From: Bacteroides sp.
Lineage (GTDB): Bacteria > Bacteroidota > Bacteroidia > Bacteroidales > Bacteroidaceae
DNA length: 64,000 nucleotides
Strand: one strand, 5' to 3'
NCBI RefSeq assembly: GCF_017992695.1
Contig: NZ_JAGOOC010000001.1
Position 1 is the first letter of the stretch. Each line of letters starts with the position of its first letter. The notes under the pieces were generated by a model. It was not told the DNA's origin. It saw only the letters and a program-made list of their open reading frames with translations, and did no database searches. Positions 57,469-59,466 of the stretch are shown here, one piece after another. The translations under genes and the position numbers were made by a program.

Positions 57469-58761
57469 TTATAAACCGAAAGCAGCTTTTATACGGTCAA
57501 CGTAATCAAGCTTTTCCCAGGTAAACAGTTCCACTTCAATAACCTTAGTATTTTGGTAACGAGAAGTAAACGCCTTGGTTACGGTGCGAGGCTCGCGCCC
57601 CATGTGTCCGTAAGCAGCGGTTTCACTATAAATGGGGTTACGCAACTTTAAACGCTCTTCAATAGCCTTGGGGCGCATGTCGAACAGTTCATCGATCTTA
57701 CGTGCAATCTCTCCATCGCTCATCTTCACGTTGCTGCGTCCGTAAGTATCTACATAGATATTGATGGGGCGAGCTACACCAATGGCATAAGAAACCTGCA
57801 CCAACAATTCGTCGGCTACGCCTGCTGCAACCAGGTTCTTGGCAATGTGACGGGCCGCATAAGCAGCACTACGATCCACCTTGCTGGGGTCTTTTCCAGA
57901 GAAAGCACCTCCACCGTGAGCACCTTTACCACCGTAAGTATCCACAATAATCTTACGGCCAGTCAAACCGGTATCCCCGTGAGGACCACCAATCACAAAC
58001 TTGCCGGTAGGATTTACATGATAGGTAATGCGATCATTGAATAGTGCCAAGACAGCCTCATGCGTAATTTCAGCAATAACGCGTGGCATAAGCACCTCGA
58101 TTACATCGCGACGAATAATGGCCAGCATCTCTTCGTCTGCTTTGAGTTGTGCTTCGACCGAATCATCAACGGGTGCAATAAAATCATCATGCTGTGTTGA
58201 AACAACAATCGTATCAATGCGCACCGGATGTCCGTTATCATCATATTCAATGGTTACTTGGCTCTTTGCATCGGGGCGAAGGTAAGTCATCTGCACACCT
58301 TCACGACGAATTTCGGCTAGCACTTGCAAAATGCGGTGCGCCAAATCGAGTGAAAGAGGCATGTAGTTTTCAGTTTCATTCGTAGCATAGCCAAACATCA
58401 TGCCTTGGTCTCCTGCACCCTGCTCCATCGGATCTGCGCGCTCTACACCACGGTTAATGTCGGCACTCTGTTCGTGTATAGCAGAGAACACTCCACATGA
58501 GTTACTCTCAAACATATACTCACCTTTAGTATAGCCAATTTTTTTGATTACTTCGCGGGCAATAAGCTGAAGGTCAACGTATGCTTCGGTTTTCACTTCT
58601 CCAGCTAGCACTACCTGTCCGGTAGTTACTAAGGTTTCGCAAGCTACTTTCGAACTGGGGTCAAATGCCAACAGCTTGTCTAGTACAGCGTCCGATATTT
58701 GATCGGCCACTTTGTCGGGGTGTCCTTCAGACACCGACTCGGATGTGAATAAATATCCCAT
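57469..58761 (-). CDS. metK: S-adenosylmethionine synthetase
   Basis: [28 protein letters not shown] and YGHMGR. Confidence 0.98.
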
Positions 58762-58798
58762 TCTGTTTTAAGAATTAAGAATTAAAAATAGATGTTCG

Positions 58799-58879
58799 TT
58801 ACGAAACAGAGGTTGAGAACAGGGGGCAGAGTAGCATACCTATAACAGGTACGGAGAGAAAACGATATTGTTTTAGCAT
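58799..58879 (-). CDS. Putative 26-aa leader peptide (uORF) between the SAM-II aptamer and metK
   Basis: ATG 58879 to TAA 58799: MLKQYRFLSVPVIGMLLCPLFSTSVS; preceded by AAAAAA, a Bacteroidetes-type start context. Confidence 0.5.
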   Translation of the reverse strand: MLKQYRFLSVPVIGMLLCPLFSTSVS

Positions 58880-58920
58880 TTTTTTCCGTGGTTGCAAGCT
58901 ACTCAAATCTGTCCACCTTT
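58868..58920 (-). ncRNA. SAM-II class riboswitch upstream of metK
   Basis: GUGG-ACA-GAUUUG-AG-UAGC-UUGCAA-CCAC-GGAAAAAAAU-GCUAAAAC: P1 GUGG/CCAC, conserved GAUUU, UUGCAA and GCUAAA, pseudoknot UAGC/GCUA; -7 box at 58933-58940. Confidence 0.85.
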
Positions 58921-58995
58921 CATTTCAGGGGGCAAAGGTAGCGAATCCTTTTGATTTAGCTGCTACATGAAACACAGATTAACATCCGTTTATGC

Positions 58996-59466
58996 TCACT
59001 TATTTAGCTCTTCGAGCAGCTGTTTCATCGTTTGCTTTAACAAGGGATGTTCGAGGTCGGGAGCTATCTCGGCCAAAGGCTCCATAACAAAGCGACGATC
59101 GGTCATTAATGGATGAGGAATGGTAAGTTCCTCAGTGGCAAGAACAGTATCGCCATAAAGAAGCAGATCAATATCAATCACCCGGTCGACATAAGCTCCA
59201 TCGACCGATTTAGCAGTACGTCCCAACTCGCGTTCAATTTGCTGAGTGAGCGTTAGCACCTTCCGGGGTGAAAGGTTTGTCTCTACACCAATCACGGCAT
59301 TTAAGAAACTATGGTCTGATGCGAAGCCCCAAGGAGCAGTAGCATAAAGAGCGGATAGGGAAATCCGTTTCCCTATCCGCTCTTCTATTTTTTGAATCGC
59401 ACTGCGCAGATGCGCCTCTTTGTCGCCAAGGTTAGTACCTAAACTAAAATAAACGTTGAGCATCAA
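58996..59466 (-). CDS. folK: 2-amino-4-hydroxy-6-hydroxymethyldihydropteridine pyrophosphokinase
   Basis: SLGTNLGD, FLNAV, DRVIDIDLL, IPHP and RRFV. Confidence 0.96.
   Translation of the reverse strand: MMLNVYFSLGTNLGDKEAHLRSAIQKIEERIGKRISLSALYATAPWGFASDHSFLNAVIGVETNLSPRKVLTLTQQIERELGRTAKSVDGAYVDRVIDIDLLLYGDTVLATEELTIPHPLMTDRRFVMEPLAEIAPDLEHPLLKQTMKQLLEELNK

Follow-up and report, generated by a model that had tools for sequence, protein, structure and literature searches.

The metK leader of a Bacteroides species carries a SAM-II riboswitch whose 3′ pseudoknot strand contains an AUG, and the locus raises the question of whether this AUG is the gated start codon of a leader peptide or a part of the aptamer itself. 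The first-pass annotation had favored a leader peptide, whose translation would keep Rho off the C-rich RNA upstream of metK. We examined the locus within a window, the whole analyzed stretch of 64,000 nucleotides, and compared it with 139 loci from the same order and 28 loci from the rest of the phylum. In our judgement, the locus is likely to combine a known riboswitch, a structural AUG, an incidental open frame and an anti-aptamer strand; this statement leaves aside how the switch acts on metK, which is discussed separately below. The coordinates of all features are given in Table 1.

Table 1. Features of the metK leader and their positions in the window.
Feature	Position	Strand	Basis and details
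Bacteroides-type -7 promoter box TACCTTTG (TAnnTTTG)	58933..58940	-	sequence read
SAM-II long-loop aptamer (RF01726)	58863..58922	-	cmscan
Aptamer P1	58917-58913 with 58891-58887	-	GGUGG with CCACG
Aptamer loop	58912-58892	-	holds insert GAGUAGC (58904-58898) and UGCA (58896-58893)
A-run	58885-58879	-	seven A residues
AUG	58877..58879	-	A is the last A-run residue; U and G pair with loop A58893 and C58894 (pseudoknot helix P2a)
Aptamer tail UGCUAAAAC	58878-58870	-	
Incidental 26-codon open frame (MLKQYRFLSVPVIGMLLCPLFSTSVS plus stop)	58799..58879	-	TAA stop at 58801-58799
3′ strand of predicted hairpin (CGUUUU...UCCGU)	58851..58864	-	pairs with ACGGA/AAAAUG (58889-58877) in the predicted SAM-free fold; MFE and centroid
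Small variable hairpin (UACCU GUU AGGUA)	58838..58850	-	folds; insert variable in own-genus alignment
Predicted anti-aptamer (switching) strand	58802..58835	-	fold, complementarity and covariation
Block GCUACUC	58835-58829	-	predicted to pair with loop insert GAGUAGC
Block CUGUUC	58822-58817	-	predicted to pair with GGACAG
Block ACCU	58813-58810	-	predicted to pair with AGGU
Block UGUUUCG	58808-58802	-	predicted to pair with 5′ flank UGAAAUG (58927-58921)
A/U-rich, G-poor spacer and metK translation initiation region	58762..58801	-	holds direct repeat AAUUCUUAAUUCUUAA, and AAACAGA just before the AUG
metK (S-adenosylmethionine synthetase), regulated gene, 430 aa	57469..58761	-	ORF with MetK N-terminus

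The identity of the aptamer is well supported. A cmscan search returned a single match to RF01726 (SAM-II long-loop) on the minus strand at 58922..58863, scoring 62.3 bits against a gathering score of 44; the match covers model positions 1-60 of 60 (E = 1e-11), and the genome contains one copy of the family. A permissive scan found no other Rfam family in the metK intergenic region, its sole extra match (E = 0.78) being noise. The pseudoknot is present, with the loop UGCA (58896-58893) and the tail UGCUA (58878-58874) matching the published UGCA / UG.C(U)A pairing (P2a), and so are the triple-helix strands, formed by the U-rich AUUU (58908-58905) and the seven A residues at 58885-58879; AUUU and A-run are invariant or nearly so in 72 aligned relatives. 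Judged by these sequence features, the element is an ordinary member of the SAM-II long-loop riboswitch family upstream of metK, with SAM binding predicted, which agrees with the first-pass assignment. That assignment had also paired the tail with UAGC: a pseudoknot pairing of the tail is confirmed, but UAGC is a genus-specific sequence, and the conserved, covarying partner is the loop UGCA at 58896-58893.

The AUG is found in the tail end of the aptamer, AAAAAAAUGCUAAAAC, at positions 58879-58877. It is part of the Rfam RF01726 consensus, and in the published pseudoknot line of the seed (SS_cons_1), loop UGCA and tail UG.C(U)A are partners. Where the loop of a seed row is GCG, the AUG is replaced by ACG or UCG, a compensatory GCG/CGC change that destroys the start codon. 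Among 137 relatives of the same order, the codon at this position is ATG in 129, TTG in three, CTG in three, GTG in one and AAG in one, and other orders of the class supply further cases of AAG, UUG and GUG. The aptamer structure thus accounts for the conserved AUG, through the P2a pairing and through the last A of the A-run, the A-rich strand lining P1. Furthermore, the AUG is predicted to be base-paired without SAM as well, in both the MFE and the centroid structure. As far as comparison of these sequences can tell, the AUG is a structural part of the aptamer, neither a product of chance nor a special feature. Some translation from it is plausible whenever the aptamer is unfolded, because its context is A-rich.

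The open frame behind the AUG behaves differently from the AUG itself. Its coordinates in the window are as first annotated, with 26 codons and a stop that lies 37 nt (58798-58762) before metK. Across 130 metK leaders, the frame that begins at the aptamer AUG is 3-81 codons long (median about 17.5, mean 20.5), compared with a median of 15.5 codons (range 12-20 over 300 rounds) and a mean of 24.5 +/- 1.9 in dinucleotide-shuffled leaders; the +2 control frame has a median of 20 codons. Frame length is indistinguishable from that in the shuffles, and 26 codons are what chance would give. Within the own genus, the frame reads MLKHILF-stop in many species and extends over 26-61 codons in others; many same-genus leaders have a frame of only 5-7 codons, and in one (L063) it is joined to metK. 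Even the closest subclade is not uniform: three species have the conserved RNA block GCAGCAC in frame 1 and four have it in frame 0, the ORF is cut off after 5 codons in two species, and in one it continues in frame as metK. Similarly, the conserved block CUACUC falls in frame 0 in 3 leaders, in frame 1 in 5 and in frame 2 in 8, and in 9 of 16 own-genus leaders the ORF stop precedes this block and hence the C-rich strand. Met, Cys or other sensing codons were not found to be enriched among 2270 ORF residues (Met 0.7%, Cys 2.9%), and the residue composition simply reflects pyrimidine-rich RNA.

A conserved-ORF test of the kind that identifies leader peptides of the mgtL or tnaC type consequently failed, since close relatives keep the start but not the frame; the comparison reveals no selection on the frame behind the aptamer AUG, on its length or on its peptide. 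The first-pass annotation had suggested aligning metK leaders across Bacteroidales for a conserved AUG and open frame, and had named loss of either as evidence against its proposal. The alignment bears out the AUG (129 of 137, explained by the aptamer structure) and not the frame, which is unconserved in the 130 metK leaders, where its length of 3-81 codons is as in shuffled sequence; the uORF is therefore not upheld as an element of a relay. From this comparison, we conclude that the open frame is an accident of sequence rather than a conserved gene or leader peptide.

The pyrimidine-rich tract downstream of the aptamer has an explanation of its own: by the criteria of folding, complementarity and covariation, it is an anti-aptamer strand that is complementary to, and covaries with, the 5′ half of the aptamer. 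In the window, the domain 58932-58797 folds as an anti-aptamer helix with an MFE of -31.5 kcal/mol (z = -3.04), and the same fold is obtained in the MFE and centroid structures of the whole leader, for which z is an unexceptional -1.64. Because this strand, which lies wholly inside the supposed uORF, is the complement of the purine-rich aptamer half, the "ORF" is itself pyrimidine- and C-rich.

Relatives with different loop inserts carry class-specific complements, which we searched for as 6-mers because exact 7-8-mers were too strict. CTACTC is present in 81% of the own-genus leaders, which have a GAGTAG loop, versus 0-8% of the others; CAATCA is present in 66% of the GATTGA class versus 0% of the GAGTAG and GGCTGC classes, and CAGTCA is enriched in the GACTGA class. 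Duplexes between the aptamer 5′ half and its own downstream segment have a median z of -1.35 relative to dinucleotide shuffles, with 31% of the values below -2 and 10% above 0. Covariation was counted on a MAFFT alignment of 72 compact leaders that was fitted to no structure. In this alignment, a helix of 10 pairs is paired in 75.9% of cells, compared with 23-48% when the partner is slid by 1-3 columns. Double-change cells number 20 versus 7.7 +/- 2.3 in shuffles, a value reached by 0 of 500 shuffles, with the proviso that kinship among sequences can inflate covariation. Compensatory types occur at four pairs (for example, UA 31, CG 9 and AU 2 at one pair). RNAalifold, applied to the own-genus MAFFT alignment, recovered P1 only, the leader being too indel-rich to align.

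Nested within the predicted anti-aptamer domain is a second hairpin, in which the strand at 58864-58851 would compete with the pseudoknot and pair with the AUG. Leaders of relatives contain UUUUCUG, which is complementary to CAGAAAA. In a comparison of own with swapped partners, this A-run hairpin scores a modest 0.68 versus 0.57 +/- 0.03, and its class table is unspecific owing to wobble pairs and to short words that match any pyrimidine tract. At the position equivalent to 58838..58850, relatives have unrelated GC-rich hairpins of differing length.

Further variation was seen elsewhere in the aptamer and its surroundings. In 72 compact leaders (A1 columns 56-64 versus 24-31), the bases after the tail track the loop insert: CAGU accompanies every GACUGA loop, and CAAU or CAGU accompanies GAUUGA loops. 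This pattern suggests an extra pairing between the long-loop insert and a 3′ extension of the tail that is absent from the Rfam structure line. In other orders of the class (L140-L167), the tail reads GCUAAAG and is followed 10-20 nt later by CUUUAGC, as in GCUAAAGCAGAAAACUCCUUUAGC; a hairpin of this design would capture the 3′ pseudoknot strand and not the 5′ half. In one genome with three RF01726 hits (G384), one copy (L033) precedes a methionine-synthase-like gene (MRDIKAELKKRILVLDGAMGTMIQ...) and not metK.

The genetic context is that of a metK leader. The metK ATG at 58761 lies 118 nt after the aptamer AUG on the same strand, and metK, recognized by its N-terminal motif, is found downstream of 134 of the 137 RF01726 hits in the order, with one hit preceding a metH-like gene. 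A TTTG box occurs upstream of P1 at the same distance in relatives, and a "UAnnUUUG promoter" was already remarked on by the authors of the published family in their alignment file (Weinberg et al, 2010; PMC2864571). Transcription is predicted to start a few nucleotides downstream of the -7 box, near 58926. Given the position of the box at 58940-58933, the aptamer would begin only a few nucleotides into the transcript.

Between promoter and P1, the window (58921-58927, minus strand) and the own-genus loci have a 5′ flank in common, GAAAUGAAAG, which is conserved and includes a second AUG very close to where the transcript is predicted to begin. From this AUG, a frame of 6 codons can be read in the window, and in L029 the reading continues in frame up to the aptamer AUG. 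The predicted fold has the flank base-paired to the anti-aptamer strand at the 3′ end of the latter. At the other end of the leader, A/U-rich direct repeats of the form UUAAUUCUUAAUUCUUAA (UUAAUU(A/C)UU units; 58770-58790 on the minus strand in the window) are located just upstream of metK in most congeners and may be a translation-enhancing or protein-binding element of start regions that lack a Shine-Dalgarno (SD) sequence. The gene upstream of the riboswitch promoter (58996-59466, minus strand) looks like folK, with a 156-aa HPPK-like ORF, and the stretch from this gene to the metK promoter showed no terminator-like site.

From these elements, a working mechanism can be proposed, whose polarity we infer: plentiful SAM would turn metK off. 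Without SAM, the strand 58835-58802 would be paired to the 5′ flank and the aptamer 5′ half, and the small hairpin would pair the A-run and the AUG with 58864-58851. With SAM bound, the pseudoknot would hold the aptamer together and release the 58835-58802 strand. The two predicted folds are mutually exclusive, and comparison of the leaders supports them. The released strand would form part of about 74 nt of G-poor, C-rich and weakly structured RNA that extends up to the metK start.

How release of the strand could lower metK expression depends on what the leader contains. No terminator-like site was found in the window leader, as the first reading had noted for terminators with a U-tract, and among 130 leaders just 3 have a hairpin plus U-run of this kind. 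We therefore discount intrinsic termination as the output. A candidate terminator at GUUUCGUAACGAAC followed by a U-run was rejected, its only local hairpin reaching -1.5 kcal/mol. The pyrimidine-rich, C-rich and G-poor character of the leader, likewise noted at first pass, was confirmed: the segment 58866..58762 contains 25.7% C, 11.4% G and 40% U, and its excess of C over G is in the top 2% of 57 upstream regions of the window. Of 130 leaders, 92% contain more C than G, and the median C/G ratio is 2.2. Counting 20 C, 7 G and 13 YC dinucleotides over its 74 nt, the tract 58835..58762 has the C-rich, G-poor composition and the length (roughly 70-80 nt) used as criteria for Rho loading; the SAM-free fold is predicted to mask it and the bound fold to expose it, and the leader without the aptamer folds weakly (z = -0.95). 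The distance from the end of the anti-aptamer strand to the metK AUG has a median of 34 nt (interquartile range 29-44). The genome encodes Rho, in a 772-aa open frame at G000:C13:139274-141478 (L168) that matches the 415-position Rho model with 633.6 bits. These lengths imply a long N-terminal insertion, as reported for the disordered region of B. thetaiotaomicron Rho. Since the leader is C-rich, G-poor and free of a terminator, Rho is a reasonable candidate for the output.

The metK start region offers a second route. With the aptamer removed, predicted helices UCUGUUU (58810-58804):AAACAGA and UCUCA:UGGGA cover positions -7 to +6 of metK in the window; this start-region helix was not found to be conserved in relatives. 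For the anti-aptamer strand, complementarity to the metK start region does not exceed that to random metK windows (median z +0.17), and duplexes between leader and start are weakly better than shuffles (median z -0.49). In a partition-function model of 125 leaders, locking the aptamer lowers the accessibility of the start region from 0.466 to 0.431, against a control change of -0.006, an effect that is significant and very small. In compact leaders such as L003, the start region is predicted to be fully open in both states. By eye, UCCCAUU opposite AAUGGGA suggested a conserved sequestor of the start codon, an idea that failed three tests; CCCAU is weakly linked to AUGGG starts (25% versus 10%, p = 0.065).

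The distance from aptamer to metK varies in Bacteroidales, at about 90 nt with a range of 13-311 nt. In the window, the aptamer and the metK start region are 118 nt apart and do not overlap. Three leaders of the same genus (L073, L075 and L076, from genomes G012, G019 and G010) lack the long leader altogether, and their metK AUG lies 13 nt after the aptamer AUG (...AAAAAAUGCUAAAAGAUUAUGGGA...). At this spacing, the pseudoknot would directly cover the metK start region, and the frame from the aptamer AUG overlaps the metK start out of frame. These short-spaced leaders thus point to two very different platform designs within one genus.

Our leading guess for the output, held tentatively and at somewhat less than even confidence, is that the released strand lets Rho load, so that transcription would end before or early in metK. 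The second guess, which we regard as doubtful, is that the strand folds onto the metK start region, a structure predicted in the window and not conserved. The two may also act together. Against these stands a purely translational reading, in which SAM frees the strand, the strand pairs with the metK start region and blocks 30S binding, and loss of mRNA is secondary. The predicted helix over the start, the slight accessibility drop across the 125 leaders and the constrained spacing between strand end and AUG are in its favor, as is the direct occlusion expected in the three leaders with a 13-nt spacing. However, the strand matches the start region no better than random metK windows, the leader-to-start duplexes and the CCCAU/AUGGG link are weak, and the start region of L003-type compact leaders is predicted to be open in both states; we consider this reading unlikely. 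An action at a distance has been described for a SAM-II riboswitch in which initiation at a site 74 nt downstream depends on an internal ribosome-binding element (PMC9373788). By analogy, the unfolded, A-rich 3′ part of the aptamer could act as a standby site, hidden by SAM, from which ribosomes reach the metK AUG some 118 nt further on, and the G-poor, weakly structured leader between aptamer and metK would suit such a path. Yet in the fold predicted without SAM, the A-run is base-paired, with the long anti-aptamer helix closing around it, and the distance to metK is far from constant; we regard this as the least probable of the readings considered here.

The remaining readings give the aptamer AUG itself a role. 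In the relay proposed at first pass, ribosomes start at this AUG when SAM is absent and, by translating the uORF, shield a rut-like tract; SAM hides the AUG, and Rho terminates transcription before metK. The AUG is indeed kept in most relatives, and seven of the eight exceptions have the near-cognate codons UUG, CUG or GUG. It also lies behind seven A residues, an A-rich context that is reportedly favorable for SD-less initiation in Bacteroidetes. The leader composition, the lack of a terminator and the presence of Rho are as the relay would have them, and both uORFs inside riboswitch aptamers and uORF-Rho relays are known elsewhere. But the AUG is fully explained by the aptamer structure and is paired in the SAM-free fold as well, and the ORF has a chance-like length, no conserved frame even among the closest relatives, an out-of-frame overlap with the metK start in three congeners and no enriched sensing codons. 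Moreover, where the ORF ends before the C-rich strand, as in 9 of the 16 own-genus leaders, a ribosome could not shield that strand. We therefore consider the relay very improbable. In a variant that dispenses with the frame, the invariant AUG behind seven A residues would offer SD-less Bacteroidetes ribosomes a landing site, or a minimal ORF, gated by SAM, and initiation alone would remodel the leader or exclude Rho, coupling SAM sensing to metK about 100 nt away; this variant we consider highly unlikely. The first-pass intuition about Rho and C-rich RNA may nevertheless be right, without the uORF.

The locus is not to be counted as a new regulatory class, because its riboswitch is already catalogued and the leader-peptide reading fails on comparison. 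What makes it of interest is that the Bacteroidales SAM-II aptamers have no SD sequence to hide and no conserved helix over the start codon, yet are accompanied by a conserved, covarying anti-aptamer strand that is C-rich and G-poor. The literature was searched for work on how SAM-II riboswitches of Bacteroidetes function or what their expression platform is, for Ribo-seq of the metK leader in Bacteroides, and for an account of how such riboswitches deliver their output at a distance in SD-less bacteria; nothing of the kind was found.

Compared with known systems, the aptamer corresponds in every respect to RF01726 (Weinberg et al, 2010; PMC2864571), whose seed already includes the metK leaders of Bacteroides thetaiotaomicron and B. 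fragilis. Shared features are the full-length model match, P1, the UGCA/UG.C.A pseudoknot, the A-run, the AAAAAAAUGCUAAA tail, the Bacteroides-type promoter directly upstream and metK downstream; at the aptamer level there is no difference, and the window holds another species' copy. The SAM-II "translation at a distance" system of Sinorhizobium meliloti metA (PMC9373788) likewise has an AUG at the 3′ edge of the aptamer that is not the functional start, with the real start tens of nucleotides downstream. Unlike the metK leader, it has an SD within the aptamer, and its two AUGs are separated by an intrinsic terminator.

The relay proposed at first pass would resemble the Salmonella mgtA leader, which combines a Mg2+ riboswitch, the mgtL uORF and Rho, and also the uORFs inside riboswitch aptamers of Mycobacterium tuberculosis (10.1101/2022.06.01.494293). 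Relays of uORF and Rho have been described for mgtA/mgtL and tnaC, and in view of these relay, coupling and aptamer-uORF precedents the relay would not constitute a new category. In contrast to mgtL, which is a conserved ORF with regulatory proline codons, the metK leader frame is unconserved in frame, length and peptide and has no enriched regulatory codons. The Rho-based output that we tentatively favor is closer to the E. coli ribB FMN riboswitch, for which ligand-induced refolding is proposed to unmask a Rho loading site (Hollands 2012; Bastet 2017; summarized in PMC12360218). In ribB, as predicted for metK, the Rho site is otherwise held in an alternative structure, and there is no intrinsic terminator. 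The two differ in aptamer and ligand, and Rho dependence is shown for ribB and inferred for the metK leader, whose organism lacks SD-led initiation and appears to have a Rho with a long N-terminal insertion.
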